Position numbers and translations under genes: made by a program. From a virus, in the IMG/VR virus record IMGVR_UViG_3300023504_000199: a stretch of DNA of 37,110 nt; one strand, given 5' to 3'. Numbering within the stretch: position 1 is the first letter of the stretch; each line of letters begins with the position of its first letter. The notes under the pieces are model-generated. The model was not told where the DNA came from. It did not search any database and saw only the letters and a program-made list of their open reading frames with translations. This document shows positions 22,560 to 35,198 of this stretch, one piece after another.

Positions 22560-22570
22560 ATCCTCCTGTT

Positions 22571-24025: not shown

Positions 24026-24252
24026 ATACTTATAGTTGCAGCTATAAGTTACATATGGCATTTTTTAACCAGATAATAAAAAATACCTGGTTAATTTTTT
24101 TGCCATTTTTTGATATAATGTTTTTATTTGTTATCAACAGAAGTTATTAACAAATTATGTATAACTTCTGTGCTTGTTTTTATCTAAGTTGTAATTTTAC
24201 TTTCTTTCTATCTTTTTTATTGCGAAGTGAAATTACAACTTCTTTTTTATCT
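24026..24252 (+). ncRNA. Candidate structured plus-strand RNA / sso-like hairpin cluster antisense to the rep leader
   Basis: Extended -10 boxes TGTTATAAT (24011-24019) and TGATATAAT (24111-24119). Hairpins at 24028-24049, 24056-24106, 24137-24171 and 24186-24241. The last has a 17-bp stem with a plus-only G-U and is followed by CTTTTTTAT. Confidence 0.35.
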
Positions 24253-24332
24253 GTTATAATAACTATTTGGTTATCACTTATTTGTTTTACTTTCATCTTT
24301 TATCTTTTCCCCTTCCTTTTACTACTCGCAAA

Positions 24333-24815
24333 TTATTGTTGAATATAATTTTTACAATAATCTAACCATACTAATACATCAATTTCATTGTCACTAACTT
24401 CTCCTGCTTCGGCAACTTTATAGTTTTTATTGATTTCTTCTATGATTTCAGCCTTATATCTTATAAATTCACTTTCAGATATAACCCCTTTTACATCCAA
24501 TGGATCTACTATATAGTTTCCGTTTTTTGATTCTTCACAAACTATATCAACTATATAATCTGATACTTTTTTTATATCTGGTTTAGATTCATCAGTTGTT
24601 ATAACTTTATTGATTCTAATCCATGAACAAAAACCTTTCTTTCCAGCACCTTCGCAATCATGCCCATCAATAAATCTATCAAACTCTATACCTAAAACTG
24701 CTCCTACAAGGCTGTCATATTGATATGTTATAATTCTTCCTATATCACCATATCTAATATTTTTATTTGATACATTTTTTAGATTTATAACTTTAACTTG
24801 ATCTCCTATATTCAT
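24333..24815 (-). CDS. Hypothetical protein
   Basis: 160-aa ORF with tight spacing to the upstream gene. No motif recognised. Confidence 0.6.
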   Translation of the reverse strand: MNIGDQVKVINLKNVSNKNIRYGDIGRIITYQYDSLVGAVLGIEFDRFIDGHDCEGAGKKGFCSWIRINKVITTDESKPDIKKVSDYIVDIVCEESKNGNYIVDPLDVKGVISESEFIRYKAEIIEEINKNYKVAEAGEVSDNEIDVLVWLDYCKNYIQQ

Positions 24816-24818
24816 TTT

Positions 24819-25100
24819 TTACACCTCTCTACACCAATAAGGTTTTACAAATATTACATTTGGATATGCTCCTTTAGCACCTGTAATTAATTCAGCGCCT
24901 TTACTATGTCTTACCTTTACTTTTTTCTTATCCATTTTTTTATACATGTCTATTTTGTGATATCGTTTTGCTGTGCAATAGTCTTGATATGCTTCATAAG
25001 AAAAAACATACTCTTTTCCTTTTTCGAAATTACGAACATAATCTTTATTTTTTATGTACTTTTTTAGGTTTATTTGAACAACTTCCATTTGACCCTCCAT
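24819..25100 (-). CDS. Hypothetical protein
   Basis: 93-aa ORF. The alternative internal start MEVVQ has RBS-like GGAGGG just upstream. Confidence 0.5.
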   Translation of the reverse strand: MEGQMEVVQINLKKYIKNKDYVRNFEKGKEYVFSYEAYQDYCTAKRYHKIDMYKKMDKKKVKVRHSKGAELITGAKGAYPNVIFVKPYWCREV

Positions 25101-25536
25101 ATCTAATTTTTTTATAATCTCTTTCAGTTATATAAAAATGAACTGAGTCATTATTTTCTATTAGATATATTGTGTTAGATCTTCCAGGACTCTTTACTAC
25201 TTTTAAATATTTATTTTTATGTTCTATTTTGATTGTTGTTAATACTCCTGTTTTTTCTTTTATATACTTTTTATCTTTGTTTAGAATTTTTACTTTAACT
25301 GGTGTTCCATTAGGCATTGTTTTTAATACATCTGCCCATATTCTAATTTCAGCTTCCTTTTTTATGTTTTGATTAGTCTTATTTTGATTAGTCTCTTGAT
25401 TAGCATTCTTTTCTTCTTTTCTTGTTTCTAAAGCAAAAACCAATTGTTCTTTATTCATTTTGCTTCTTCCTTTGATACAAAATTCTTTTGCTTTCTGTCT
25501 TAATTCTTTAAATGTCAAATTCTCTAAGTATTTCAT
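25045..25536 (-). CDS. Rho_N/SAP-like domain protein
   Basis: The preferred start MKYLENL at 25536 follows AAGGGGGA. LTFKELRQKAKEFCIKGRSKMNKEQLVFALE resembles the Rho N-terminal helical motif. The longer ORF to 25596 lacks an RBS. Confidence 0.45.
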   Translation of the reverse strand: MKYLENLTFKELRQKAKEFCIKGRSKMNKEQLVFALETRKEEKNANQETNQNKTNQNIKKEAEIRIWADVLKTMPNGTPVKVKILNKDKKYIKEKTGVLTTIKIEHKNKYLKVVKSPGRSNTIYLIENNDSVHFYITERDYKKIRYGGSNGSCSNKPKKVHKK

Positions 25537-25561
25537 AAACTTTTCCCCCTTTGAATTTGAT

Positions 25562-25870
25562 TTAAAACTCTCCTCCAGCTGCAACCCATTTATCATACGA
25601 TATTCTATCTATTCTAAATGTTTTACCTACTGTCGCAACATTAAATGCATTTGTTTTTTTTGCATATTTGATTAAATCTCTTACATATGCTTCACTACAT
25701 TTTAGATATTTTGCAAAATCTTGTACTTTCATATAGTCTCTTGCTGCAAATTCATCATGTGTACGAAATTTCTGTACAATCTCATCAATATCTATTCTTT
25801 CAAGTATGCAACTTATAAGATCTTCTTGATTTATATTTCTTATCAGAAATTTTTGCGTTTCAGTTGCCAT
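25562..25870 (-). CDS. HTH_17/excisionase-family DNA-binding protein (Cro/Xis-like position)
   Basis: VQDFAKYLKCSEAYVRDLIKYAKK...VGKTFRIDRISYDKWV matches the MerR/excisionase-type HTH pattern. RBS AAGGGGGGAG. Confidence 0.55.
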   Translation of the reverse strand: MATETQKFLIRNINQEDLISCILERIDIDEIVQKFRTHDEFAARDYMKVQDFAKYLKCSEAYVRDLIKYAKKTNAFNVATVGKTFRIDRISYDKWVAAGGEF

Positions 25871-25919
25871 TTTTCTCCCCCCTTAGTTTTAATTAGGCGA
25901 GATATGACTCGCCATTTTC

Positions 25920-26078
25920 TCATTGTTTTTGCTTATCGTTTTTTTGTTTTTCTATTTCTTGTTTTGCATATAATGCTTGTGCAACCATCCATATTCCTTT
26001 TATATCTGTAGCATTTAGATTATTTATTATTGTTGCTATTTCATTAGCTAATTCTTTTTTTCTTCTTATTTCATCCAT
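25920..26078 (-). CDS. Small early protein (52 aa, below the ORF-track cutoff)
   Basis: ATG at 26078 preceded by AAAGGAGGA. Translation MDEIRRKKELANEIATIINNLNATDIKGIWMVAQALYAKQEIEKQKNDKQKQ. It is the first gene of the leftward operon. Confidence 0.5.
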   Translation of the reverse strand: MDEIRRKKELANEIATIINNLNATDIKGIWMVAQALYAKQEIEKQKNDKQKQ

Positions 26079-26122
26079 TTTTCGTCCTCCTTTTTTAGCA
26101 ACGATTGTTAATATACTTATAT

Positions 26123-26149
26123 ATTATAGCAATTTTTGATATAAGTCAA
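26123..26149 (-). promoter_or_regulatory. Candidate early leftward promoter
   Basis: On the minus strand: TTGACT (26144-26149), a 15-nt spacer, then TGCTATAAT (extended -10, 26123-26131). Confidence 0.5.
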
Positions 26150-26168
26150 CTTATTTTTGCTATTTTTC

Positions 26169-26197
26169 TTGTTTTTTTTAGCAGTCATTGTTATAAT
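26169..26197 (+). promoter_or_regulatory. Candidate repressor-gene promoter
   Basis: TTGTTT (26169-26174), a 17-nt spacer, then TGTTATAAT (26189-26197). This lies 31 nt upstream of the ATG at 26228, which has RBS GGGAGG. Confidence 0.5.
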
Positions 26198-26227
26198 TTG
26201 TATATAAGGATATAGGGAGGTTCATAA

Positions 26228-26596
26228 ATGAATAAGAGGATAAAAGAATTAAGAAAATATTTACAGTACAATCAGAAGCAGTTTGCTGATGCACTCGGTA
26301 TTGCTCAAACATCTGTTAGTTTTCTAGAACGTGAAGGCTCTAATGTTACTGAACAAAATATAAAAACTATTTGTACAGTATTTAATGTACGTGAAGAATG
26401 GCTAAGAGAAGGAAAAGGAGAAATGTTTAATCAATTATCTATCGATGAGGAAATCGTAAAATACGTTTCTAAATTGGTACAGGATGGAGATCAACTAAAA
26501 AAGGATTTAATCCTTACTATTCTAAAATTAGATGCAGAAGACTGGGAAGTAATAAAAAAAATAATTACTGGTTTAAATTCAAATAAAAAAAGATAA
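26228..26596 (+). CDS. XRE-family HTH repressor (CI-like)
   Basis: NQKQFADALGIAQTSVSFLEREGSNVTEQNIKTICTVFNV is a classic HTH_3 pattern. The gene is divergent from the early operon. Confidence 0.8.
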   Translation: MNKRIKELRKYLQYNQKQFADALGIAQTSVSFLEREGSNVTEQNIKTICTVFNVREEWLREGKGEMFNQLSIDEEIVKYVSKLVQDGDQLKKDLILTILKLDAEDWEVIKKIITGLNSNKKR

Positions 26597-26618
26597 GCAA
26601 ATGCTTATCTTTTTAATT
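26591..26618. terminator. Bidirectional rho-independent terminator
   Basis: agataagc-aaat-gcttatct flanked by an A run (26583-26590) and a T run (26611-26614). Confidence 0.65.
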
Positions 26619-26629
26619 ATTTATTGTCT

Positions 26630-26749
26630 TTATTTGTCTTTATTATAGTTGTCTATGAAAACTTTTATTAATTTTAGATATTCTATATCATGAATTTTTT
26701 TTAAATTGTCTAAAATTTCTTTTTTTATGTTTTCTTCTTTTTTCTTCAT
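26630..26749 (-). CDS. Small hypothetical protein (39 aa)
   Basis: ATG at 26749 preceded by AAGGGGGA. Translation MKKKEENIKKEILDNLKKIHDIEYLKLIKVFIDNYNKDK. Low complexity, so uncertain. Confidence 0.3.
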   Translation of the reverse strand: MKKKEENIKKEILDNLKKIHDIEYLKLIKVFIDNYNKDK

Positions 26750-27050
26750 AAGCGCTATCCCCCTTTACATAAAATAAATACCCCTTTACATTTAGTCGAA
26801 CATATGTTTCATTAACATAATTATAGACTAAAGATATTCTTTTTTCAAGCGACGTACAATTTCGTAAGTTTTATATTATAAATTATTTTGCATAAATTAT
26901 ATATTTTTTTTAAATAATTTACAATACAAAATATATGGATCATAAATTTTTATTTTTTGCAATATTTTTTGTACTTTCATATGTTTATTTTTTAAAAAAT
27001 TTATACATAATAAATAAAAAATTTTTAAAATTATTAGGTAGGTGAAAATT

Positions 27051-28190
27051 ATGGAGGATATCAAAAGTGTATTTCTTAGAAAACGTAGGGATATGTATGA
27101 AGTTACTGTAAGATATACAAGTCCTAATGGAGAAGTTAAAACAAAATGTTATGAAAAATTTAAAAGGAAAAAAGATGCTGAAAAATATCTCGTAGAAATA
27201 AAATCATCTATAAACAATGAAAAATTTATACTTCCTAACACATTATTATTTACTGATAGATGTATTAAATACTATAGAGATAAAGAATATGAATATAGTC
27301 CAAAAACCGTTAATAATGCTTACTCTATTATAAAAAAACATATAAAACCTTATTGGGCCGATATAAAATTAAATGATATAACAATTAGTATGTATCAAGA
27401 TTTTATGAATTACCTAGGTAAGTCTAATCTTAGTAGCGCTACTATAAAAAAAATTTATCAGATATCTAATGCTACACTTAGAGAATGTTACAGATTAAGA
27501 GAAATAAATACAAATATACCCGAATTTGTATTCAAACCTAAATCTAAGAATATTGCTAAAAATAAATCTGATTTATATACTGTAGAGGAAATTCAATTAA
27601 TTCTAGAAAAATGTAAAGATACTAAAATTTTAGAAATTCCAATTAACCTTTTTTTATTCGCGGGCATGCGCTTTGGCGAAATTAGTGGCTTATGTTGGGA
27701 AGATATAGATTTTGACAATAATACATTAAATATAAACCATAATTTAGTGTATGATGAAAAAAATAAAACTTTTACGATGCGTACACCAAAAACAGATAGT
27801 GGTATACGAACTATTATCGTTCCAGATGCTGTTATTAAATTGTTAGATAATGAAAAACGTAGACAAACTAAGTTATTACTACAAGGCCTTTTTAAGAAAA
27901 ACGAATATAATGTAGTCTGTATGAATACACAATTTAGATATTTATCAGAAAATAATTTTTTACAAAGTTATAAGCGCTTTTTAAAGAATAAATGTAATTT
28001 AAGATATATAAGACCTCATAATTTACGTCATGCTCATGCTACACTTTTACTGGCATCTGGAGTTGATATGAAAACAGTAAGTGAACGATTAGGTCATAGT
28101 AAAATAGATATTACTATGAATACTTATTCACACGTATTAAAAGAGATGGATCAAAGAGCTTCTGATAATATAGAAAGAATGCTATTATAA
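27051..28190 (+). CDS. int: Tyrosine recombinase / phage integrase
   Basis: AGMRFGEISGL (catalytic Arg), HNLRHAHATLLL (HxxR), and GHSKIDITMNTYSHV (catalytic Tyr context). ATG 27051 has AGGTAGGTG upstream. The track's GTG start at 27042 is an alternative. Confidence 0.9.
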   Translation: MEDIKSVFLRKRRDMYEVTVRYTSPNGEVKTKCYEKFKRKKDAEKYLVEIKSSINNEKFILPNTLLFTDRCIKYYRDKEYEYSPKTVNNAYSIIKKHIKPYWADIKLNDITISMYQDFMNYLGKSNLSSATIKKIYQISNATLRECYRLREINTNIPEFVFKPKSKNIAKNKSDLYTVEEIQLILEKCKDTKILEIPINLFLFAGMRFGEISGLCWEDIDFDNNTLNINHNLVYDEKNKTFTMRTPKTDSGIRTIIVPDAVIKLLDNEKRRQTKLLLQGLFKKNEYNVVCMNTQFRYLSENNFLQSYKRFLKNKCNLRYIRPHNLRHAHATLLLASGVDMKTVSERLGHSKIDITMNTYSHVLKEMDQRASDNIERMLL

Positions 28191-28200
28191 TATAATTTAA

Positions 28201-28230
28201 GGTATGTATCTAAATTACATACCTTTTTTC
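28201..28230 (+). terminator. Rho-independent terminator of int
   Basis: ggtatgta-tctaaat-tacatacc followed by TTTTTTC. Confidence 0.7.
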
Positions 28231-28280
28231 TTGGGCACTTTTTGGGCACTCAAAACTCATTTGGGCACTTTCAGGGCACT
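28231..28280 (+). repeat. Four direct copies of TTGGGCACT (one is cAGGGCACT) as two pairs with 11-bp phasing
   Basis: Copies start at 28231, 28242, 28261 and 28272. Confidence 0.85.
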
Positions 28281-28281
28281 C

Positions 28282-28301
28282 ATTCCATATAATTCCATAT
28301 A
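28282..28301 (+). repeat. Tandem 10-mer ATTCCATATA x2
   Basis: Read directly at 28282-28291 and 28292-28301. Confidence 0.8.
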
Positions 28302-28390
28302 ACTAAAATCTAGCATTCTCAATATGTATATCATTAGAATCAACTCAAATAAACCTATTTCATTTATCCCCCTAATAAGTATATATTTTA

Positions 28391-28434
28391 AGGCATCTAC
28401 AATTTTTTCCCCCTTGTAGATGCCTCTTTTTTTA
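28391..28434 (+). terminator. Strong plus-strand hairpin plus T run inside the non-coding att-like region
   Basis: aggcatctaca-(13 nt)-tgtagatgcct followed by CTTTTTTTT. No plus-strand gene lies upstream of it. Confidence 0.6.
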
Positions 28435-28506
28435 TTTAAATTTCAACGTTTTATGAACCCTAATAATCAATTTATAGTTATTTTAATTAATTGTCAAAAA
28501 CCTTCA

Positions 28507-28526
28507 TTGGGCACTTATTGGGCACT
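28507..28526 (+). repeat. Third pair of TTGGGCACT direct repeats (11-bp phasing)
   Basis: Copies start at 28507 and 28518, in the same orientation as the 28231-28280 set. Confidence 0.85.
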
Positions 28527-28549
28527 CGTTAAAAATTTTTATTATTTTT

Positions 28550-28596
28550 TTATAAAAATAATAAAGAAGTACATTAAAAATTATTTGTACTTCTTT
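28550..28596 (-). terminator. Rho-independent terminator of the PP2C/Replic_Relax/FtsK operon
   Basis: An 11-bp stem aaagaagtaca / tgtacttcttt (28563-28573 and 28586-28596). On the minus strand it is followed by TTATTATTTTTAT. Confidence 0.6.
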
Positions 28597-28627
28597 ATAT
28601 CTACTATTATAATATTATTAGATAGTT

Positions 28628-29695
28628 TTATTGGTTTCCGGCCTTATTACTATCTGAAGCATCTACTATTTTGGTAGGTGCTTCTTTTATATTAAAACAT
28701 TGTATCTCTCTTACACTACTTCCTGTAAAAATCTTTCCATGCCCCTCACCTCTAAGTTTAGTTAAGGAATCATAATCTCCACAAACTACTTTACTTGCTT
28801 CTTTTGTATTTACTTTTAGTCCAATCTTGGTATTTATATTAGATTTTAATAATCCAGGTAGTATTTCTGCATATGGTGTCTGGGTTGTCAATATAACATA
28901 AATGCTTGCTGCTCTACCTTTTGCTAATAACTCTCCTAGTAATCTATAAAATTCCTTATCTACCTTTGGATTAAAACTCGCTAACTCTTCTATTATTAAG
29001 AATATATCTTTATATCTTCTATCTTTATTTCTTCTTAAAGTTTTATATCTTCTATTCATTTCTTCTATTAACTCTTCCATAATATCCTCTATACCATCTT
29101 TACCTTCACCATAATACTTACATTTATCTTTATATTGATACAAATCTATTAATTTTGTATCTTGAATATATAAATCTACATTTTTTCTTTTGATTAAATT
29201 ATTTACAATTACATCTAAACAAACTGATTTACCTGAGCCAGTTGCCCCTGCAATCAATAAATGGCATTCATTTGATGATCTGTAATACCAGTAAACAATG
29301 TTGTGTGTATCTAAATCTATTCCAACTGGAACTCCCTTTTTATCGTCAAAGCAAAAATCATTATAATTATATTTTTCATCATTGTTATTTATATGAATTA
29401 ATATTAATGTATTTTTATACTTTATTTTTAATTTATCTGAATTTACTTTTAGAAAAGTTGCTATCTCTATTTTATATTTCATAAAGTCATTTACTGAAAG
29501 GCCTGTCGGAATAGTGAAATAAAAATTATTATCTTTATATTGGTGATGTAGTATAGGATATTCTCCACTTCTATTACATAAACCAAGTTCATAAAATAAT
29601 TTATCCCAATTATACTTCTTTTTAAATACTATATTCTCTATTGCTTTAGCAGCATTAAATATACTATCTACTAATAGATTAATCAAATATATCAC
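28628..29695 (-). CDS. FtsK/SpoIIIE-family DNA translocase-like ATPase
   Basis: GVPVGIDLDTHNIVYW...HLLIAGATGSGKS (Walker A), IFLIIEELASF (Walker B), RAASIYVILTTQTP, and KIGLKV...SKVV. 355 aa, no TM segments seen. Confidence 0.85.
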   Translation of the reverse strand: MIYLINLLVDSIFNAAKAIENIVFKKKYNWDKLFYELGLCNRSGEYPILHHQYKDNNFYFTIPTGLSVNDFMKYKIEIATFLKVNSDKLKIKYKNTLILIHINNNDEKYNYNDFCFDDKKGVPVGIDLDTHNIVYWYYRSSNECHLLIAGATGSGKSVCLDVIVNNLIKRKNVDLYIQDTKLIDLYQYKDKCKYYGEGKDGIEDIMEELIEEMNRRYKTLRRNKDRRYKDIFLIIEELASFNPKVDKEFYRLLGELLAKGRAASIYVILTTQTPYAEILPGLLKSNINTKIGLKVNTKEASKVVCGDYDSLTKLRGEGHGKIFTGSSVREIQCFNIKEAPTKIVDASDSNKAGNQ

Positions 29696-30254
29696 CTGCC
29701 TTTTCTATTCTTATGCTATCATAAATAACTTTTATATCTTTCATTCTCTTATTTAATCCTTGATTATTAATAACATATAACGTAGGCATAACAGGCCACT
29801 CTGTATTTTCTATTATTATATCTTTAATTTCTTTATACTTTGATAAGCAGTCATTCGGACTTATTTGGACTTCAAGTAAAATTCTTTTTATTCTTTTATT
29901 TTTTCTTATTTTTAGGTATGCATCTGGAATGATATTGCCTATTTTGGGGCTTTTCTTAAACTCTAAAATTTCATATCCATTTTTTATAAGCTTCACTAAA
30001 AAATCAGTTATATAGAGATCATGTGCTATTAATCTTTTCTTTGGTCTTTTATCTAGATAATATACATACATGTTTTTTGTACCCTCTATATTAAACATTT
30101 CTCGATTTATATATCCTTCATCTGTTAATTTTTTCAATCGTCTAAGCGGTATATTTTCATGAACATCTGTAAATAATAATTCCTGTACTTGTCTTCTAGT
30201 ACATACTCTACAGACAGTCATAAATTCTAAAATTTTCAAATCACGTTCTTGCAT
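29679..30254 (-). CDS. Replication-relaxation (Replic_Relax)-like protein: N-terminal wHTH plus PD-(D/E)xK-like core
   Basis: DLKILEFMTVCRVCTRRQVQELLF...LRRLKKLTDEGYINR (wHTH), then HDLYITDF ... IIPDAYL ... LLEVQIS. It overlaps both neighbours, by 14 and 17 nt. Confidence 0.5.
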   Translation of the reverse strand: MQERDLKILEFMTVCRVCTRRQVQELLFTDVHENIPLRRLKKLTDEGYINREMFNIEGTKNMYVYYLDKRPKKRLIAHDLYITDFLVKLIKNGYEILEFKKSPKIGNIIPDAYLKIRKNKRIKRILLEVQISPNDCLSKYKEIKDIIIENTEWPVMPTLYVINNQGLNKRMKDIKVIYDSIRIEKAGDIFD

Positions 30255-30840
30255 ATTTTTTCCCCCTTTTTCTTTTTATATCTTTCATTTTTAAAATATT
30301 ATACTGCATCTTTTCTTCACAATTGTATAAAGCAAGTGAATTGACAAATTTAAAATTATTATTTTTAAATACATTTACATAGTCTTTGTCTTCTTTTATT
30401 AAAATACTCGAATCGCCTAAATTAAAAAATACTATATATTCTTTTAAAAAAATTACAAAACTCAAAGTCGTTCCAAAAAGCATATAATCTAATTTATATA
30501 CTTTGTAGTTTCTTTTATAAAACTCTCTATATACTAAGTCTCGCCACTTGTTTTTTATATCGTTTTGCACTTTTTTATTTTTTAAATCGCATATAAAGTT
30601 TTGCTCGCCTTTTTCTATATCTTCATTTAATTTATAAGTTTTCAATATCTCAAATACACTTTGACATGCAAGGTATGAACCTATATGGCTATATTTAAAT
30701 ACATCCATACTATGTCCATCTGCGACTGTACAAACTGCATAGTTTTTATACTTCTTATAAAGAAAAAAATCTTGTGATGAAGAAGATTTTACTATATTTT
30801 TATATCCAACAGCACCTTCACCAAATATATTAACTTCCAT
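30241..30840 (-). CDS. Short PP2C-like (PP2C_2-type) domain protein
   Basis: AVCTVADGHS, FGTTLSFVIF and FFNLGDSSILIK are spaced as in PP2C metal-binding motifs. At only 199 aa, the C-terminal metal-binding Asp region appears absent. RBS TAGGAGG. Confidence 0.5.
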   Translation of the reverse strand: MEVNIFGEGAVGYKNIVKSSSSQDFFLYKKYKNYAVCTVADGHSMDVFKYSHIGSYLACQSVFEILKTYKLNEDIEKGEQNFICDLKNKKVQNDIKNKWRDLVYREFYKRNYKVYKLDYMLFGTTLSFVIFLKEYIVFFNLGDSSILIKEDKDYVNVFKNNNFKFVNSLALYNCEEKMQYNILKMKDIKRKRGKKYART

Positions 30841-30910
30841 AAAACCTCCTAATAATCCTATTATTATTTAGTTTATTTAAGGTTTAATTTATTTATTCTA
30901 ATTTTTAACA

Positions 30911-30948
30911 TAAAAATAAGCACCACTTTGTGGTGCTTACTTTTATAT
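30911..30948. terminator. Bidirectional-looking terminator after the small membrane-protein gene
   Basis: aagcaccac-ttt-gtggtgctt forms a 9-bp GC-containing stem flanked by AAAAAT and ACTTTTAT. Confidence 0.65.
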
Positions 30949-30980
30949 TAAACTCGTATATTAACTTTTTTAAATTGTCA

Positions 30981-31295
30981 CTAAGATATTTCTCTTCTTT
31001 TGTTGTTTCTTTGTATATTGTTTTGGGGTGTTTTCGTCCTTTGTACTTCTTTCTTAACTGGTCTTCTACTAGTTCTTTTTGGTGTTTTATTAAAAATATA
31101 ATCTTGTCTAGCAAAAATAAGACCTACAAATAACATTGAAAAGCATAATCCACCTAAAATTAGATATACTATTCCGACACGCTCTACTCCCATTATTTTA
31201 TTACCAATCATTAGTACTAGCATTGCAAAAAAAGTTACTAATAAAGATGTAAGTAAAGTTTTAAAAATTCTTTTGAAAACATTCTTCATAACCAT
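30981..31295 (-). CDS. Small two-TM membrane protein with highly basic C-terminal tail
   Basis: TM-like LLTSLLVTFFAMLVLMI and IVYLILGGLCFSMLFVGLIF, with tail KTPKRTSRRPVKKEVQRTKTPQNNIQRNNKRRE. The ATG at 31289 is better spaced from GGGAGTGG than the ATG at 31295. Confidence 0.6.
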   Translation of the reverse strand: MVMKNVFKRIFKTLLTSLLVTFFAMLVLMIGNKIMGVERVGIVYLILGGLCFSMLFVGLIFARQDYIFNKTPKRTSRRPVKKEVQRTKTPQNNIQRNNKRREIS

Positions 31296-31428
31296 CCACT
31301 CCCAAAAATTATAATTTCCTTCAACTTATATAATAGCAAAATTTTACACAAATATCAATTGTTATCGCAATATTAATATGTTTTTGTTATATTTTGTTAT
31401 TATTTCTTAATTTCTTCATATGTATATT

Positions 31429-31448
31429 TTACAATTTATAAATTGTAA
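31429..31448. promoter_or_regulatory. Perfect 20-bp palindrome TTACAATTTATAAATTGTAA upstream of the peroxiredoxin gene (candidate operator)
   Basis: Read directly. It lies 59 nt upstream of the ATG at 31507. Confidence 0.45.
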
Positions 31449-31506
31449 CAATACTTTTGTTTTTTAATAATATAAATATAAAGATTAAATTTAAAGAGGT
31501 GATATT

Positions 31507-32034
31507 ATGCCATGTTTGCCTAACTTAGGTTCAAAAGCTCCTGATTTCACAGTAAACACTACATTCGGTCCTATCAATCTATCTGATTACTGTGGAAAAT
31601 GGGTAGTATTATTCTCCCATCCTGGAGACTTTACACCAGTATGCACTACTGAATTTATATGCTTTGCGAAGTATTATAATGAATTTAAAAAGAGAAATAC
31701 TCAACTTATAGGCCTTAGCGTCGACAGCAATGCCTCACATTTAGCATGGGTTTATAATATATGTCAACTAACAGGTATTGAAATTCCGTTTCCAATTATA
31801 GATGATTCAAACAAAACAATAGCTAAACTCTATGGAATGATTTCAAAAGATATGAGTGAAACATCAACTGTCAGAGCTGTATATATAATTGATGATAAAC
31901 AAATACTAAGAACTATCTTGTATTATCCTATGACAACTGGAAGAAATATATTTGAGATTCTTAGAATTATAGATGCTCTACAAAAATCTGATTGCGATAA
32001 TGTTGTTACACCAGCTAACTGGTTACCAGTTTAA
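31507..32034 (+). CDS. 1-Cys/Prx6-type peroxiredoxin, C-terminally truncated relative to the family
   Basis: [19 protein letters not shown] active-site motif, then RAVYIIDD...ILYYP...GRN..EILR. It ends at ...TPANWLPV followed by TAA TAG TAA. Full-length relatives continue about 40 aa further. RBS AAAGAGGTGA. Confidence 0.8.
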
Positions 32035-32051
32035 TAGTAACAGTAATTGGA

Positions 32052-32936
32052 TTATTTTTCAAAAATTTCAACGTATTTTTCAGAAGAAGTTATATAAACT
32101 CCTGATTTTAATTTATACATATCTGTTCCAGTTCTCTCAATTTTTTGAGTTATAGTAAATACATCTCCTTTTTCAACTTCTCCTACTACACTGCTTAAAT
32201 TAAAATCGGCTTTATTATGTATGTTTATCTTGTCTGCTATTACTCTAAGATATTTTGTTTTATTATCTGTATTTTTTGCCACATAAGTTACACCTAATTG
32301 TTCACATACTCCTCTTGCTGTTGCTTCAGCACATTTTTCAATATAATCCTCGTCTAACATGCGTTTAGCTTCTTTCCAATAATCCATGAATCCATATTCT
32401 ATTAAAATAGCTGGTGCGTTTGTTTGTCTAAGTATTGCAAGAGTAAATCCACACATTTCAGTATCTTGTACAACACCATAATCTCTTTCCGGCTGTAATG
32501 CTTCTTTTAATTCAGCATGTACCTTATTTGCTAAAGAAACGGATTTAGAAGAACAACCTTTAGTTTTTAATACTAATAAACCTTTAACTCTAGTTTGGAA
32601 TTTAGCACAATTACCACTTGCATTGAAATGGTTTGATACAACTAAATCTACGCCTAAACTATTAAGATGTTTTGCTCTAGTAGCTAAAGGTGTATCTGTT
32701 TTATCTTTAAATCCAGAATATGCAACACCGATGTTACATCTTTTAAGTGCATCACCTAATGCATATGATACCTTTTTATTAAATTCGTATTCATGTATAA
32801 TTTGTCCTTTCTTTTTAAGGACGTTTCCTTGTTTGTCTTTTATATCATCTAGTATTGCTGGAGTTCTTTTTCCATCTGTCACTAAACTGTGACCCGCATC
32901 TATACCTACTAAATATTTACTCATATTATCACTCAC
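32052..32936 (-). CDS. Endolysin: N-acetylmuramoyl-L-alanine amidase (Amidase_3) with C-terminal SH3-like binding domain
   Basis: VGIDAGHS, VVSNHFNA, ILIEYGFMD, and a C-terminal beta-rich region of about 70 aa. It follows the holin gene. Confidence 0.9.
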   Translation of the reverse strand: MSDNMSKYLVGIDAGHSLVTDGKRTPAILDDIKDKQGNVLKKKGQIIHEYEFNKKVSYALGDALKRCNIGVAYSGFKDKTDTPLATRAKHLNSLGVDLVVSNHFNASGNCAKFQTRVKGLLVLKTKGCSSKSVSLANKVHAELKEALQPERDYGVVQDTEMCGFTLAILRQTNAPAILIEYGFMDYWKEAKRMLDEDYIEKCAEATARGVCEQLGVTYVAKNTDNKTKYLRVIADKINIHNKADFNLSSVVGEVEKGDVFTITQKIERTGTDMYKLKSGVYITSSEKYVEIFEK

Positions 32937-32945
32937 TTTCTTATA

Positions 32946-33203
32946 TTACTTATTTTCTATAAAACTTTTAAATACTTGATGTAAACCTGTTGAAGTTAAT
33001 CCTGATAACATACCAGATAATATTATTTCTACATTTAGATCTTTAGTTATCCAAATATTTAGTAATACACCTATTGCAGCTAAAATTGTAGGGATATATT
33101 TATTATCTACATCTTTAACCCATTTTTTTAATATATAACCTATGCATAAGCATACTCCAATTATTGTTGTTACTAAGTATCCATTTAAAACTGTAAAATC
33201 CAT
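32946..33203 (-). CDS. Holin
   Basis: The preferred start MDFTV at 33203 follows AGGAGG. There are 2-3 TM segments (LVTTIIGVCLCIGYIL, IPTILAAIGVLLNIWI, ILSGMLSGLTSTGL). It lies upstream of the endolysin. Confidence 0.7.
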   Translation of the reverse strand: MDFTVLNGYLVTTIIGVCLCIGYILKKWVKDVDNKYIPTILAAIGVLLNIWITKDLNVEIILSGMLSGLTSTGLHQVFKSFIENK

Positions 33204-33213
33204 AATAAACCTC

Positions 33214-33444
33214 CTAAAATATATTGTTTTGCACTGCATAAAAAAAGAAGCTAATGAAAGCTCCTACCAGTGCAGTAATAAACCATTTTAATGTTGCTGT
33301 TAATGACTTTAAGTCGATACATAAATTTTTTATCTCTGTCCTTAGAACTGCACTATCTTCTTTTAGTTTATCAATTTCTTGTGCATGATTATTGATTCTT
33401 CTTTCAAGTCTTTCCAGAGTCTCTTTTAAATGTTCCTCATTCAT
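33214..33444 (-). CDS. xhlA: XhlA-like lysis-associated protein (coiled coil plus C-terminal TM)
   Basis: 76 aa: LERLERRINNHAQEIDKLKEDSAVLRTEIKNL followed by TM WFITALVGAFISFFFYAV. Confidence 0.6.
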   Translation of the reverse strand: MNEEHLKETLERLERRINNHAQEIDKLKEDSAVLRTEIKNLCIDLKSLTATLKWFITALVGAFISFFFYAVQNNIF

Positions 33445-33462
33445 GTTAACTCCTTTCTAGTT

Positions 33463-33546
33463 CTATTTTTTAGAACCTATAAAAATAGCTATAGTAAAAA
33501 CTCCTATAATACTTCCAATTCCTAAACCTATTATAAAATTAATCAT
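33463..33546 (-). CDS. 27-aa single-TM micro-protein at the head of the lysis cassette
   Basis: ATG at 33546 preceded by AAAGGAGGGAAA. Translation MINFIIGLGIGSIIGVFTIAIFIGSKK. Confidence 0.4.
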   Translation of the reverse strand: MINFIIGLGIGSIIGVFTIAIFIGSKK

Positions 33547-33577
33547 TTTCCCTCCTTTCCCTTGTCAATTTATGACA

Positions 33578-33614
33578 TTAAAAAAGAGCACCTAAAAAAT
33601 CAATAGCTACTCTT
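33578..33614 (-). terminator. Candidate terminator after the zinc-ribbon gene
   Basis: Minus RNA agaguagcu-(11 nt)-aggugcucu followed by UUUUUAAUG. Eight of nine positions pair, including one G-U. Confidence 0.45.
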
Positions 33615-33632
33615 TTCTAATTAAAATTTTAT

Positions 33633-33857
33633 CTATAAATTATATCTTTTCTTTCTTTTTCCAAATAATTCTTTTTGTTTATTCATAGAATCTAACATTG
33701 AATTTGTTGATACTATAATTACATTATTGCTATTACATTTTGGACATTTTTCATATTCTCCTATATTGATTGTAAGAGTACTGTTTTCAATCGTATATTC
33801 TAAGCCACAATCCTTACACTTTAATAAAGTATAACATTCCCATGACACTTTATTCAT
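33633..33857 (-). CDS. 4-Cys zinc-ribbon protein with basic tail, translationally coupled to the upstream metallopeptidase gene
   Basis: The preferred start MNKVSW at 33857 follows AAAGGAG. ATG overlaps the upstream stop (ATGAATAA). It carries CKDC ... CPKC and ends KRKKRYNL. Confidence 0.65.
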   Translation of the reverse strand: MNKVSWECYTLLKCKDCGLEYTIENSTLTINIGEYEKCPKCNSNNVIIVSTNSMLDSMNKQKELFGKRKKRYNL

Positions 33858-34965
33858 CTCCTTTAAATAAAGATTTAAAATCACATTTATCATATGGTGC
33901 AAGATGAGTATAATGGACATCTAACATTTCTCTAACCTGTTTCCAATTATCATGTACTTTTTGCATGTGATTAATTCCTAATTCAGTTTTCATTATACTT
34001 ATAAATTGAGGATCTGCTACATCTTCGAAACTTTTAATAAAAATAAACAATGCTTTTAAAACTCTTTCTGATATTTGATTTATTTGTTCTTCTTTAAAAA
34101 ATCCCGTATTTGACAAAGTATTAAATGCATTAAGTGCTATATAACAAATTCTTAAACCGGGTACAGGATGGGTTAAATGTTCTAATTTTTTTTTGTTTAA
34201 AATATCTTTTTTATTACTTGCACCATCAAGCCAATTATATAAAATATATAGACCTATAAGAACACCTGCTAAAAATCGTATTAATGAATCAATTATACAA
34301 CCAAAATCCCCCATTCCCATATTGATAAATGTCATTTGATACATTCTAATTTCTTCATTAATCAAAGCTGCTATAGCACAACAATCTGCATCATATTCCA
34401 ATGTTTGAATTATCATAGAATGTTCTATATTTACATTAGAACTTACTTCACATAATTCATATATTCCAAGTTTTCTTCCTAAATCACAATGACCATTATT
34501 AATATGAAAAAATTCGTGAAATACTAAAAATTTAATACAATTTTTGTATAATACTTGGTTCATTCTCCAAGGTATGACCCTTCCTACTTCTGGAATATTT
34601 GAGAATGCTTCATCCTCAACAAAATATTTAATTCTTTCCTTTAAGAATATGTTTAAACCTTTTAATATTCCTATACAATATTCTTCGTCAATTTTAGTTG
34701 CAAATGCATTTGGAATTAATGAATTTACTGAATAAACATTTATATGTGGATGATAATTATCTTTGTCCATATTAAGATTATCCCACTCAGTATTTTTTAA
34801 TCCTTCAGGTGTTATGATACAAACCTTTTTATTATTATAATATGTATTCAACATACTACTTATCCATTTTATTTCTTTATGAATAATATGATCTTCTTCA
34901 GTTATATCATCAGTATATATTCCACCATACTTAGCATAAATTTCATTAAATCGTTTTTTTATCAT
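33850..34965 (-). CDS. M48/ImmA-like HExxH zinc metallopeptidase-domain protein
   Basis: 371 aa. IPNAFAT, then FLVFHEFFHINNGH (HExxH), then QTLEYDADCCAIAAL (E..D/N..A pattern). Hydrophobic stretch FLAGVLIGLYILYNWL. RBS GGAGGAA. Confidence 0.6.
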   Translation of the reverse strand: MIKKRFNEIYAKYGGIYTDDITEEDHIIHKEIKWISSMLNTYYNNKKVCIITPEGLKNTEWDNLNMDKDNYHPHINVYSVNSLIPNAFATKIDEEYCIGILKGLNIFLKERIKYFVEDEAFSNIPEVGRVIPWRMNQVLYKNCIKFLVFHEFFHINNGHCDLGRKLGIYELCEVSSNVNIEHSMIIQTLEYDADCCAIAALINEEIRMYQMTFINMGMGDFGCIIDSLIRFLAGVLIGLYILYNWLDGASNKKDILNKKKLEHLTHPVPGLRICYIALNAFNTLSNTGFFKEEQINQISERVLKALFIFIKSFEDVADPQFISIMKTELGINHMQKVHDNWKQVREMLDVHYTHLAPYDKCDFKSLFKGDE

Positions 34966-34994
34966 TTAAATTCCTCCATTATATTGGTATATTA

Positions 34995-35029
34995 TGATAT
35001 AATAGAGTTAACAAAACACTATTATATCA
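34995..35029. promoter_or_regulatory. 11-bp perfect inverted repeat TGATATAATAG / CTATTATATCA (13-bp spacer), an extended -10-like box on each strand
   Basis: Arms at 34995-35005 and 35019-35029, lying 30-64 nt upstream of the metallopeptidase ATG. Confidence 0.45.
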
Positions 35030-35072
35030 AGAACTCACAGGTGTCGGATACCTTATGTGGGTTCTTTTTTTC
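35030..35072 (+). terminator. Plus-strand-favoured rho-independent terminator between the tail operon and the metallopeptidase cassette
   Basis: agaactcaca ... tgtgggttct (G-U on the plus strand only, C-A mismatch on the minus strand), an inner ggtg/tacc stem, then TTTTTTTTC. Confidence 0.55.
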
Positions 35073-35164
35073 ATATTTCTATAAAAAGTCTGAATATCCT
35101 CTAATTTTTGACAATAAAAAAGAACTTATTTATTAAGTCCTATGTTCTTAATATTTAATTCTTA

Positions 35165-35188
35165 TTCGCAATATTTTTAAATTGCGAA
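35165..35188 (-). terminator. Weak hairpin after the last tail gene
   Basis: ttcgcaat-atttttaa-attgcgaa. The downstream U tract is poor. Confidence 0.3.
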
Positions 35189-35198
35189 CTAAGTAAAA

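Follow-up and report, generated by a model that had tools for sequence, protein, structure and literature searches.

The closest relatives of the gene pair described here are found in temperate Bacillus and Geobacillus siphoviruses (PfEFR-4/5, vB_BceS-MY192, phiCM3, BtCS33, BceA1, GBSV1, and phi18-2) and in the Clostridium and Thermoanaerobacterium plasmids pCP118-34k and pMU3262. The Bacillus-type gene, named "replication-relaxation / replication initiation protein", is paired with an FtsK/SpoIIIE-like gene, and authors working on Bacillus phages have grouped this pair with the parABS/RepA plasmid-prophage functions (PMC11526630; PMC9658697). The family of the first protein, Replic_Relax (PF13814), has been placed in the PD-(D/E)xK superfamily (PMC3424549) and corresponds to the MobC superfamily of CONJscan (PMC5357655). 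TraX, a MOBC relaxase, binds direct repeats distant from nic (PMC12857230). The original prediction for the present locus, made from the sequence alone, drew on the occurrence of FtsK-like/Replic_Relax pairs in transfer modules of Gram-positive integrative and mobilisable elements (IMEs). This is at odds with the streptococcal IMEs, in which MobC/Replic_Relax relaxases are paired with VirD4 and TcpA/FtsK-type proteins have never been found with them (PMC5357655).

The window, i.e. the whole 37,110-nt stretch of DNA that was analysed, has a 55-bp repeat at its ends that closes a 37,055-bp circle, and it is the complete circular genome of a temperate siphovirus of Intestinibacter bartlettii. A 37,085-bp Logan contig is compatible with the same circle, given an inferred end overlap of ~30 bp. 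The sister phage contigs measure ~36.3–36.6 kb, and the window genome is of similar size.

All three overlapping minus-strand ORFs of the original prediction were confirmed, together with an AGGAGG ribosome-binding site before the first ATG, and profile searches supported each of the domain calls (Table 1). The 14-nt overlap between the first two genes stood as well, whereas the 17-nt overlap between the second and the third is obtained only with a GTG start at 29695 (355 aa); with the likely start, TTG at 29686, as chosen by gene callers for ten sister contigs, the protein has 352 aa and the overlap shrinks to 8 nt. The two hairpins proposed as flanking terminators are both present, but since the upstream one and the ribosome-binding site lie in host-derived DNA, they do not delimit a phage operon.

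Table 1 Features of the window around the gene pair and at the two recombination junctions
Feature	Position	Strand	Remarks
Homologous crossover interval	1703..1714	.	Inside the 479-aa tail gene (1388..2827); L065 match ends, L003/L008 match begins
Tyrosine integrase, 379–382 aa	27042..28190	+	Pfam Phage_integrase 1.4e-22, plus Arm-DNA-bind_4 domain
attP of own integrase	28191..28627	.	Crossover point ~28367
A+T-rich hairpin with T-run, after FtsK-like gene	~28550..28596		Visible in the sequence; not called by terminator scan
FtsK/TcpA-type P-loop DNA motor, 352–355 aa	28628..29695	-	Pfam FtsK_SpoIIIE 7.9e-15
Replic_Relax (MOBC-type) protein, 191 aa	29679..30254	-	Pfam PF13814 5.1e-8
PP2C' ORF, 199 aa	30241..30840	-	Pfam PP2C_2 (PF13672) 4.9e-32
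Illegitimate junction	30283..30284	.	Host PP2C codon 186 meets phage DNA, 29 nt ahead of the Replic_Relax ATG
Captured I. bartlettii chromosome, 1,746 bp	30284..32029	.	prx' + 104-aa membrane ORF + PP2C'
Hairpin after 102/104-aa ORF	30917..30939		Within captured host DNA
Host hydrophobic ORF, 102/104 aa	30981..31295	-	Upstream of PP2C in every host locus; hydropathy maximum 2.5
prx', 5' fragment of gene	31507..32034	+	First 175 codons of host 606-aa peroxiredoxin-GH18 fusion gene
Endolysin (Amidase_3)	32052..32936	-	Pfam Amidase_3 2.5e-26; 100% identical to L065

The first ORF, hereafter PP2C', had been taken for a short PP2C-like protein and is in fact a 3'-truncated copy of a host gene. Positions 30284..30840 correspond to codons 1–186 of the 256-aa PP2C_2 gene of the host, native ribosome-binding site included, and 30241..30283 provide the last 13 codons and the stop as an out-of-frame reading of the phage leader 5' of the Replic_Relax gene. 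The 14-nt overlap with the Replic_Relax gene exists because the broken PP2C frame runs 43 nt into phage DNA, and it was created by the fusion of this frame onto the Replic_Relax leader. The match to PF13672 scored 111.6 bits against a cutoff of 24, covering profile positions 1–165 of 209 only, and PP2C' aligned with 98% identity to a 256-aa homologue (P0001). The TDGF and DDIS motifs, found past the break point in all seven full-length homologues aligned (249–274 aa), are both missing from PP2C', leaving its catalytic domain incomplete in this alignment. Because these motifs hold two metal-binding aspartates of PP2C enzymes, PP2C' would be catalytically dead, and it is probably a non-functional remnant.

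Apart from the window, the 199-aa protein occurred in one other contig of the whole collection, from the same genome, and among the matches listed the host PP2C was present in 53 blocks and the Replic_Relax protein in 34. Full-length PP2C is an I. bartlettii chromosomal gene with its own conserved neighbours (prx of 606 aa, a 104-aa ORF, PP2C of 256 aa, a 470-aa ORF, and VanW, in this order), which are unrelated to the pair; beside the pair, no PP2C gene was found in any of 39 related loci. Conservation as a unit was the test set beforehand for a functional trio; the claim fails because all 39 loci keep the Replic_Relax/FtsK pair and none keeps PP2C. The three-gene arrangement is a scar left by recombination; it does not represent a new system.

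The PP2C fragment is the inner end of a continuous piece of host chromosome. This piece is 99.2–99.3% identical to I. bartlettii DSM 16795 (NZ_DS499566.1) and to eight uninterrupted chromosomal loci (L011–L018), and 100% identical to both L065 and L071. At its other end, the prx gene, intact with 606 aa in L011–L018, has been interrupted by an integrated prophage, and 32029/32030 marks the attR junction for the family of prophages that use the prx site; the remaining fragment matched the NCBIfam peroxiredoxin profile with 3e-77 (positions 9–178 of 224). The same truncation adjoins many different prophage lysis cassettes (182 blocks among the matches listed), and the endolysin gene, with which the phage genes end ahead of the prx-type attR, lies in a segment that comes from a resident prophage.

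As judged by these sequence comparisons, the 37,055-bp genome is a recombinant of two parents. From 30284 through the wrap to ~1702 it is a segment of lysogen chromosome, with which L065, a 1.6-Mb chromosomal contig, shows 100.000% identity across 30284..37110 and onward, with 0 mismatches up to 1714. Positions 1715..30283 are the contribution of an L003-like phage: L003 and L008 have 0 mismatches from 1703 to 4361, L008 has none across 26931..30283, and L003 differs near 19.7–20.2 kb only, among the first 40 of its 90 mismatches. All sister phages part from the window exactly at 30283/30284, where the microhomology is 1–2 nt and where at least 334 bp common to all of them are missing from the window. 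The deleted region is the conserved stretch upstream of the pair and includes promoter-like sequence and repeats.

We are confident of the following explanation, and this confidence is one judgement for the chimera and the conserved pair together. An L003-like phage would have recombined with the chromosome of a lysogen carrying a related prophage in its peroxiredoxin gene, by a homologous crossover in the tail gene (1703–1714) and an illegitimate one at 30283/30284. The event would have brought along the 1,746 bp of host DNA and removed the pair's own conserved upstream region; in the window, transcription of the pair probably starts at host-derived promoters. That the chimera is an assembly artefact, a molecule that does not exist, is very improbable. 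Only one sample has yielded it, as two assemblies of one circle, and this sample evidently holds related phage and host sequences with long identical stretches able to mislead assemblers. However, both assemblies gave 37,055 bp, with overlaps of 55 bp and ~30 bp (the latter inferred); with the 1–2 nt shared at 30283/30284, a k-mer graph needs real reads to cross; and the parent-specific SNPs at 1702 and 1715 are 13 bp apart, so that single k-mers must hold both parental alleles.

The phage-by-lysogen recombination proposed here resembles the formation of specialised-transducing phages of the lambda gal/bio type: the captured host DNA runs from precisely the attR of a prophage to an illegitimate junction, the phage DNA beyond is reciprocally lost, and the genome size stays near that of the sisters. 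Unlike in lambda gal/bio, the att site is that of the resident prophage family (prx site) and not that of the phage's own integrase (CNNM site), and the other boundary was formed by homologous crossover in the tail gene, which argues for recombination between a phage and a lysogen over a one-step aberrant excision. Instead of two crossovers with a resident prophage, the history may have been the aberrant excision of an already hybrid prophage. A simple one-step aberrant excision is also disfavoured by the prx-type att arm motif, which is missing from all other Replic_Relax-bearing phages.

In contrast to PP2C', the Replic_Relax and FtsK-like genes are a conserved part of this phage lineage, in which they make up a two-gene module with translational coupling. 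The FtsK-like gene directly follows the Replic_Relax gene in 39/39 related loci, down to 45–47% identity of the Replic_Relax protein and 32% of the FtsK-like protein. In these loci, which were retrieved via the Replic_Relax gene, the pair keeps one fixed position and the region just upstream varies. This position is past the lysis cassette and directly before attP, making the pair the last item before attR in the prophage. With the Replic_Relax protein of PfEFR-5 as query, an FtsK/SpoIIIE-type gene or a neighbouring ATPase lay under the match in 26/26 GenBank phage records (for one of them, DLc1, the ATPase is named in the RefSeq copy only). The hosts of the pair are nearly all endospore-forming (Bacillus, Geobacillus, Cytobacillus, Clostridium, Paraclostridium, and Thermoanaerobacterium), and three of the 26 records are labelled Staphylococcus or Stenotrophomonas phages. 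The pair is also carried by pCP118-34k and pMU3262, where in the latter it has SpoIIIAC/AD-family and Spo0E-family genes on its flanks, with ParM and a recombinase close by; the plasmids with the pair are typed as non-mobilizable.

As predicted, the pair adjoins an integrase gene in a phage. The further proposal of a nested mobilisable element that includes int is not supported by the prophages L020 and L021, whose sequence passes into host DNA (the CNNM gene) at the equivalent of window position 28367; attR follows directly after the FtsK-like gene, and int and the pair are at opposite ends of the whole prophage. The integrase, 99–100% identical in the sister phages L002, L004–L006, L009, and L022–L024, belongs to the whole phage. 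The repeat TTGGGCACT, for which binding of the translocase or the wHTH protein had been suggested, occurs in five exact copies, at 28231, 28242, and 28261 on the int side and at 28507 and 28518 on the FtsK side. This layout is that of integrase arm sites in attP, and the repeats, which flank the attP crossover, are probably such sites.

The match of the Replic_Relax protein to PF13814 (33.6 bits against a cutoff of 25.3) is limited to residues 12–70, the N-terminal wHTH; phrog_9996 matched over the full length (8.7e-17). Every listed homologue carries PF13814, and gp29 of PfEFR-5, 30% identical to the window protein, covers positions 1–183 of 191 of the profile. In the alignment of homologues, H78, D79, D84, D111, E128, and Q130 are invariant. 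The AlphaFold2 model (pLDDT 83.6, pTM 0.81) has an alpha-beta-beta-beta topology, with a winged helix (1–66), a helix at 73–91 that carries H78, D79, and D84, and three strands; D111 is placed just ahead of strand 2 and E128-V-Q130 at the end of strand 3. The model suggests that an N-terminal winged helix is joined to a C-terminal PD-(D/E)xK-like core, in agreement with the original prediction, with Q and not K at the third catalytic position. Foldseek returned wHTH regulators along with FokI, Bax1, NucS, XisH, and BamHI, all as weak matches (nucleases E ≥ 6e-4).

The second protein of the pair matched phrog_1358 with 2.5e-47 and, among PDB sequences, FtsK (2e-14) and TcpA of pCW3 (2.5e-8); the match to NCBIfam plasmid_TraB was weak (6e-6, 25 bits against a cutoff of 800). 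Its AlphaFold2 model (pLDDT 85.9) shows the alpha and beta motor domains. In Foldseek, TcpA ranked first by E-value (3.3e-18 over 349 aligned columns), and TM-scores were highest (0.65–0.72) for the FtsK motor on dsDNA. Walker A and Walker B are intact, and G150, G155, K156, S157, E237, and Q272 are invariant in the alignment. There is no gamma domain: the chain stops after the beta domain, with residues 339–355 disordered in the model, and FtsK_gamma gave no match. Nor was a confident membrane anchor found, the N-terminus being modelled as a single low-confidence helix and the maximum 19-residue Kyte-Doolittle hydropathy being 1.55, at residues 1–19, which include D10 and K17. In PADLOC-DB 2.0, no model matched PP2C' or the Replic_Relax protein, the ATPase obtained ATPase-domain matches only (mad8, 2.9e-19; SspH, 6e-16; HerA), and no system had all of its components matched by the three proteins.

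What the pair does can be proposed by analogy. We tentatively put forward plasmid-type DNA nicking and translocation as a possible function. The winged helix of the Replic_Relax protein would bind the direct repeats in the conserved upstream region, its nuclease core would nick nearby DNA in the manner of the MOBC relaxases TraX and MobC, and an FtsK/TcpA-like hexamer would then translocate the excised or episomal phage DNA, either for plasmid-type mobilisation or to deliver it to a transfer or segregation apparatus that is already resident. Should the site of binding be in the deleted region, the window phage has lost it. This reading is consistent with the placement of PF13814 in the PD-(D/E)xK and MobC superfamilies, with the binding of repeats by TraX, and with TcpA as the best Foldseek match. 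Several observations speak against it: the ATPase has no detected membrane anchor, neither the genes called on the sister phage contigs nor the 14 window proteins scanned include a VirD4 or T4SS family, the MobC relaxases of streptococcal IMEs pair with VirD4 and never with TcpA (PMC5357655), the plasmids bearing the pair are typed as non-mobilizable, and the nuclease core has Q for K in a protein whose Pfam match lies on the wHTH only.

It is somewhat doubtful that the pair serves to maintain or segregate the phage in an episomal, plasmid-like state, for example by multimer resolution, DNA partition, or forespore delivery, with the Replic_Relax protein as a sequence-specific adaptor for a gamma-less dsDNA pump. 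The phage also encodes ParA, ParB, and a HUH Rep, the ATPase model reaches its top TM-scores with the FtsK motor on dsDNA, the hosts nearly all belong to endospore-forming genera, the pMU3262 pair has sporulation-family, ParM, and recombinase genes around it, and in Bacillus phages the pair is placed with the parABS/RepA functions (PMC11526630; PMC9658697). However, no membrane anchor was found that would place the pump at the septum, a nuclease-fold partner is foreign to the known FtsK-Xer or Par systems, and these phages also integrate, as seen in L020 and L021.

A bolder and unlikely idea is that the pair serves as a capsid-independent DNA-delivery module of temperate phages and phage-plasmids, here almost only of endospore-forming Firmicutes. 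A MOBC-type nickase would mark the phage DNA, and the anchor-less FtsK/TcpA-type motor would pass it to a resident machine, be it a conjugative T4SS or the sporulation septum translocase. If true, these phages would gain an additional means of spreading or access to spores, and the window would be a natural variant minus the cis-acting site.

We consider it quite unlikely that the pair acts in prophage defence or superinfection exclusion, as a HerA/FtsK-type ATPase with a PD-(D/E)xK nuclease against incoming DNA. The attR-proximal accessory position would suit such a role, ATPase-plus-nuclease combinations are common in defence, and the ATPase matched mad8 and SspH in PADLOC as well as SIR2/HerA and HerA-NurA complexes in Foldseek, the latter far more weakly than FtsK and TcpA. 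By contrast, PADLOC has no model for the Replic_Relax protein, the fixed position in 39 loci beside a variable upstream region is unlike fast-turnover defence cargo, the plasmid-borne pair adjoins partition and recombinase genes, and the characterised family members named in the cited literature are relaxases only.

A three-gene transfer module with a phosphatase regulator, or an ATPase/nuclease/phosphatase conflict system, as originally predicted, is hardly credible: the ORFs are indeed co-oriented and overlapping with valid domain matches, in the accessory stretch that separates the lysis genes from attP, a frequent home of defence and moron genes, but the PP2C part is 99.2% host chromosome cut at codon 186 by an illegitimate junction, it accompanies the pair in one genome only and in 0/39 related loci, and PADLOC is blank for PP2C' and the Replic_Relax protein, with domain-level matches only for the FtsK-like protein.

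Compared with known systems, the conserved pair combines features of several. By the correspondence of PF13814 to the MobC superfamily, the Replic_Relax protein can be likened to the MOBC relaxases TraX (Enterococcus faecalis pAD1) and MobC (CloDF13), with which it would have in common a winged helix at the N-terminus and a core like that of restriction endonucleases. TraX binds direct repeats, and the sister phages hold conserved direct repeats upstream of the Replic_Relax gene. The known MOBC relaxases, however, use a VirD4-type coupling protein and a T4SS, none of which is encoded here, and the Pfam match of the window protein spans the wHTH only. TcpA of Clostridium perfringens pCW3 is the best Foldseek match of the ATPase, its crystallised chains are of similar size (~350–360 residues), and the ATPase–relaxase-like–integrase adjacency resembles the compact IME layout. 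Unlike TcpA, the ATPase has no detected membrane anchor and is borne by a complete tailed phage; moreover, TcpA in the surveyed streptococcal IMEs/ICEs partners Rep-type or tyrosine-recombinase-type relaxases, not MobC. Streptomyces TraB, likewise an FtsK-family motor on a mobile element, is a single FtsK-like dsDNA conjugative translocase that is anchored in the membrane and recognises clt repeats through a C-terminal wHTH of its own; the window ATPase has neither the anchor nor such a wHTH. The pairs of Bacillus phages and plasmids consist of the same two Pfam families in overlapping genes, and that of PfEFR-5 has the lysis cassette on one side and the integrase/repressor on the other. The Replic_Relax proteins of PfEFR-5 and the window have H..D, PD, and EVQ motifs in common (30% identity, E = 1e-7). 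The similarity between the Bacillus-type pairs and the window pair is low (25–33%), and the gene order is FtsK then Replic_Relax in the Bacillus-type elements and Replic_Relax then FtsK here. Unlike the Bacillus-type pairs, the window pair has lost its own upstream region and has a host gene fragment fused in its place.

The three minus-strand ORFs beside the integrase gene were indeed found where the original prediction had placed them, and the AGGAGG ribosome-binding site before the ATG of the first, the truncated PP2C-like ORF (PP2C'), was confirmed. The 14-nt overlap between PP2C' and the Replic_Relax gene (RR) was present as well, but the 17-nt overlap between RR and the FtsK-like ATPase gene holds only with the GTG start at 29695; gene calls in ten sister contigs place the ATPase start at a TTG at 29686, giving 352 residues and an 8-nt overlap. 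Of the two terminators proposed to flank the ORFs, one was recovered as a hairpin at 30917..30939, and the other, an A+T-rich hairpin plus T-run 3' of the ATPase gene at about 28550..28596, is visible but was uncalled in the terminator scan. Pfam backed the domain assignments of all three ORFs: PP2C_2 for PP2C' (4.9e-32, profile positions 1-165 of 209), Replic_Relax for RR (5.1e-8, 33.6 bits against a cutoff of 25.3, residues 12-70 only) and FtsK_SpoIIIE for the ATPase (7.9e-15). The adjoining gene encodes a tyrosine integrase with an Arm-DNA-bind_4 domain. PHROGs profiles further matched RR over its full length (phrog_9996, 8.7e-17) and the ATPase (phrog_1358, 'FtsK/SpoIIIE-like protein', 2.5e-47).

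Coordinates of the ORFs and related features (window positions unless a related contig is named)
Feature	Position	Strand	Remark
PP2C' ORF	30241..30840	-	199 aa
RR ORF	29679..30254	-	191 aa
FtsK-like ATPase ORF	28628..29695	-	355 aa from GTG at 29695
Conserved RR upstream region	L002 9800-9971; equivalents in L026-L050; deleted in window next to 30283		sequence conservation
Amidase (lysis)	32052..32936	-	lysis-cassette gene before prx'
ParA	21738..22559		in window
ParB_N protein	20718..21737		just under Pfam cutoff
HUH Rep	23086..23826		REP_ORF2-G2P 3.5e-16

We compared 39 related loci, 28 from IMG/VR collected through the RR alignment and 11 contigs from exact look-up. RR was directly followed by an FtsK-like gene in all 39, down to 45-47% RR and 32% FtsK identity, and homologues of PP2C, of the peroxiredoxin and of the 104-aa ORF were found in none of them. 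Among GenBank phages, neither megablast with window 28400..31400 nor tblastn with PP2C' gave a match, and tblastn with RR gave three weak Clostridium botulinum phage matches only. PADLOC returned no system-level match for the trio, and Rfam no match at gathering score in the window. Because PP2C occurs in 0/39 related loci and PP2C' is truncated host DNA, the trio is not a real system.

The closest relative of PP2C' is the 256-aa protein P0001 (98% identical), whose gene is located in long chromosomal contigs, where the gene order is NmrA, a 606-aa peroxiredoxin-GH18 fusion, a 102-aa ORF, PP2C, a 470-aa protein and VanW, with EF-G farther on. All full-length homologues run about 70 residues beyond the break in PP2C' and include conserved TDGF and DDIS motifs, which we take to represent two of the metal-binding aspartates of PP2C enzymes; as both motifs are lost, PP2C' is probably inactive. 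BLAST revealed that window 30284..32029 (1,746 bp) is 99.2-99.3% identical to uninterrupted chromosomal loci and matches scaffold NZ_DS499566.1 of Intestinibacter bartlettii DSM 16795 just as closely. A Clostridium sp. MAG and an I. bartlettii strain of greater divergence have peroxiredoxin, 104-aa ORF and PP2C in the same order, at 74-80% identity.

The window passes from host to phage sequence at 30283/30284, 29 nt upstream of the RR start codon, where host and phage have only 1-2 nt of homology. Consequently, the broken PP2C frame reads 43 nt into the RR leader before a stop, which generates both the 14-nt 'overlap' and the last 13 residues of PP2C'. The other RR-bearing contigs (L001-L006 and L008-L010) all part from the window at precisely this position; upstream of RR they share a conserved non-coding stretch of at least 334 bp that is missing from the window. 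At the opposite end, host identity stops at 32029/32030, 22 nt past the amidase stop codon. This junction between the amidase and prx', the 5' fragment of the host peroxiredoxin-GH18 gene, recurs on numerous chromosomal contigs; listings of the 175-aa prx' run to 182 blocks, on contigs >1 Mb and beside at least three different lysis cassettes, and the phage-side motif T(T/G)TAATAGTAACAGTA is conserved at all such junctions. The shared junction and motif thus identify 32029/32030 as the attR of a prophage family that integrates at peroxiredoxin codon ~175. This codon (window 32019-32050; ~10513-10545 in the related loci L063-L072) serves as attB for many prophages with three kinds of lysis cassette, and integration there costs the gene its C-terminal peroxiredoxin domain and its GH18 part.

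Genes for terminase, tail, holin, amidase, CI-like repressor, ParA, ParB and HUH Rep are present in the window, and its 55-bp terminal direct repeat indicates that the assembly is circular, with a length of 37,055 bp. Along the minus strand, early genes are succeeded by those for packaging, head, tail and lysis and then by prx', the 104-aa ORF, PP2C', RR, the FtsK-like gene and an intergenic region, past which the integrase and repressor lie on the opposite strand. A 1.6-Mb chromosomal contig (L065) is 100.000% identical to window 30284..37110, and the match extends without mismatch to window 1714. The phage contigs L003 and L008 show zero mismatches from window 1703 to 4361, and L008 also over 26931..30283. 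These identity blocks establish that the genome is an L003-like backbone (~1715..30283) recombined with a block from a lysogen chromosome, comprising tail-fibre genes, lysis genes, the attR of the resident prx-site prophage and then the adjacent 1,746 bp of host chromosome. The two parts meet by a homologous crossover within 1703-1714, inside a 479-aa tail gene, and at the illegitimate junction 30283/30284. Close relatives of both parents were found, with 100% identity across the junction regions, and the breakpoints were mapped to 12 bp or less. The capture of host DNA is of a specialised-transduction-like kind.

A simple one-step aberrant excision is unlikely to have produced this genome, as no other RR-bearing phage has the prx-type att arm motif; the version in which an attP just past the amidase allowed such excision from the prx site was rejected on the same ground and because two integrated prophages (L020 and L021) have their attR after the FtsK-like gene, beside the host CNNM gene. 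It is also unlikely that the chimera is an assembly artefact, since the illegitimate junction has no k-mer common to both sides and parent-specific SNPs lie 13 bp apart at the homologous boundary. The two-parent recombinant is rare: the PP2C' protein was found in one other contig, Logan SRR8666058_399 (37,085 bp), which matches the window at 100% identity across the 14.5 kb compared and whose length fits the 37,055-bp circle if its ends overlap by ~30 bp.

In the tail-fibre region inherited from the resident prophage, window 33850-34965 encodes a 371-aa protein without Pfam match, and window 35199-37049 a 616-aa protein with a weak C-terminal GDSL-lipase/acylhydrolase domain (9.7e-5, below cutoff). 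Sister phages carry very different genes in this slot, including ATP-grasp, acyltransferase and an IS607-like resolvase with TnpB.

The phage's own integration site was located from L020 and L021, which lie on 85-kb and 594-kb contigs. Host genes (CNNM-CBS-CorC, metallophosphatase and NAD kinase) directly follow the FtsK-like gene there, and identity to the window stops at the equivalent of 28367, placing the attP of the phage's integrase within 28191..28627. Of five exact copies of TTGGGCACT, three (28231-28269) lie on one side of the crossover point and two (28507-28526) on the other. We considered them as binding sites of the ATPase or the wHTH protein and rejected this reading: their symmetry about the attP crossover, a typical arm-site layout, together with the integrase's Arm-DNA-bind domain, makes them putative integrase arm-type sites. 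Once integrated, the prophage ends with the RR-FtsK pair before attR and has the integrase at its far end, and both are conserved with the phage backbone, which also excludes a nested mobilisable element made of integrase and pair. Taken together, the original observation was partly confirmed and its interpretation partly supported: the domain calls and the RR/FtsK pair hold, but the trio, the nested element and the repeat assignment fail.

CNNM is the host gene beside attR in integrated copies. At this CNNM att site, host DNA was captured a second time, independently, in L001 (ENA ERZ28598809 scaffold_600), where 11888-14424 corresponds to the window from 28367 onward and a 63-aa 5' fragment of CNNM, an Acb2/Tad1-like gene and an ISL3 element stand in place of the integrase and repressor. 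The Acb2/Tad1-hairpin family gene is likely to be anti-defence.

The gap between lysis cassette and RR is variable, containing ~555 bp of empty sequence, an ISL3 element, a second integrase with small regulators or, in the window, host DNA. The ~170 bp proximal to RR is conserved even in a lineage with 65% RR identity. Within it are two direct repeats, placed 22 nt apart and lineage-specific (TCAAATAT twice versus TCATATAT and TCACATAT), as well as an inverted repeat (GTGTGAAG ... CTTCACA) and a -35/-10-like pair (TTGTACA ... TAGTAATAT). The region is a candidate operator or oriT. The window has lost the promoter-like pair, the inverted repeat and the direct repeats, and because the pair's own upstream region is gone, its expression presumably depends on host-derived promoters. 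In the sister phages, this repeat-bearing region offers a concrete target for binding and nicking assays.

Several other features lie near this region. Upstream of the ~170 bp is a G+C-rich element, unusual for an A+T-rich genome, without Rfam match; in the L002 region upstream of RR, Rfam gave only a chance tmRNA fragment. Right after the amidase of L002/L003-type phages, a 10-bp sequence (CGACCGATAA, with variants; L002 9420-9478) is repeated four to five times in tandem; the repeats resemble iterons or parS and are absent from the window, whose lysis cassette derives from the other parent. The L020-L024 phages (e.g. L022 7498-9479) have a 335-aa tyrosine integrase, two small ORFs and an HTH_26 regulator between amidase and RR, and thus two integrase genes, and are without the prx-type att motif. 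In L005 and L010 (3145-4320), a 391-aa ORF without Pfam match lies beside the ISL3 transposase upstream of RR; its internal repeats are ~75-78% identical, with BLAST self-matches offset by ~45 and 90 nt.

The AlphaFold2 model of RR (pLDDT 83.6, pTM 0.81) comprises a winged helix (residues 1-66), a helix (73-91) and three strands. Invariant H78, D79 and D84 lie on helix 73-91, invariant D111 just before strand 2 and E128-x-Q130 at the end of strand 3, so that the modelled core has the classical PD-(D/E)xK layout with Q replacing K. Foldseek returned wHTH regulators together with FokI, Bax1, NucS/EndoMS, XisH and BamHI, all weak (best E 6e-4), and searches against PDB sequences gave a marginal wHTH match only. 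The Replic_Relax family (PF13814) has been placed in the PD-(D/E)xK superfamily (PMC3424549) and corresponds to the MobC relaxase superfamily of CONJscan (PMC5357655); its studied members are the relaxases TraX of pAD1 and MobC of CloDF13, which resemble restriction endonucleases, and the direct repeats bound by TraX lie 70-120 bp from nic (PMC12857230). For the ATPase model (pLDDT 85.9), the best Foldseek E-value was to TcpA, the coupling protein of pCW3 (3.3e-18), and the best TM-score to the FtsK motor on dsDNA (up to 0.72), in agreement with PDB sequence searches. Across 25 homologues there is no variation in its Walker A and B motifs or its TTQ glutamine, and no gamma domain or confident transmembrane segment was found in it (maximum hydropathy 1.55).

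As a tentative reading, the pair may constitute a plasmid-type DNA-processing module. RR would bind the upstream repeats via its winged helix and nick DNA near them, and an FtsK/TcpA-type hexamer would then translocate the genome in its excised or episomal form and perhaps pass it on to a resident T4SS. However, the ATPase has no membrane anchor, the phages encode no T4SS or VirD4, streptococcal IMEs pair MobC relaxases with VirD4 and never with TcpA (PMC5357655), and the plasmids with the pair are typed non-mobilizable. In ICEs and IMEs of the same streptococcal survey, TcpA-type ATPases partner Rep-like relaxases (PMC5357655), which makes the HUH Rep a possible alternative partner of the FtsK-like protein. 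This Rep has a sub-threshold match to the MobA/VirD2 relaxase domain (1.1e-4), and a VRR_NUC nuclease is also encoded within window 20718-23826.

The main rival, which we consider only slightly less likely than the DNA-processing reading, is that the pair serves maintenance, segregation or forespore delivery. In its favour, ParA, ParB and Rep are encoded by the phage, the modelled ATPase is similar to the FtsK dsDNA motor, and nearly all hosts in which the pair was found are endospore formers; three of 26 matching GenBank phage records are labelled Staphylococcus or Stenotrophomonas phages. In the Thermoanaerobacterium plasmid pMU3262 (L055 5221-8035), moreover, the FtsK-to-Replic_Relax pair lies between a SpoIIIAC/SpoIIIAD-family gene and a Spo0E-family phosphatase gene. 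A defence role is improbable, the PADLOC matches bearing on it being to the ATPase domain only.

These results remove a false lead, as the window holds no PP2C/nuclease/ATPase system and PP2C' is unfit for entry in catalogues of defence systems or transfer modules. They provide a clean example from nature of 1.75 kb of host chromosome carried by a gut temperate phage, and the two captures illustrate how phage accessory genes and fused ORFs originate and how recombination scars can mimic operons. The striking feature of the trio is thus explained by an ordinary process, and the remaining question of what the pair does extends beyond the window.

The RR/FtsK pair of the window is a new member of a known phage/plasmid gene pair that is widespread in temperate phages and plasmids of spore-forming Firmicutes and whose function is so far only predicted; genome descriptions of Bacillus phages and phage-plasmids have already noted it (PMC9658697, PMC11526630). 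In Bacillus phage PfEFR-5, a 385-aa FtsK gene overlaps that of a Replic_Relax protein (PF13814, 6e-11) which is 30% identical to RR with aligned H..D, PD and EVQ motifs, and the pair is located between the lysis genes and the integrase/repressor. In all 26 GenBank phage records matching this protein, the adjoining gene is annotated as an FtsK/SpoIIIE-like or related ATPase (for DLc1, in the RefSeq copy only). The same overlapping pair is found in C. perfringens pCP118-34k and in pMU3262.
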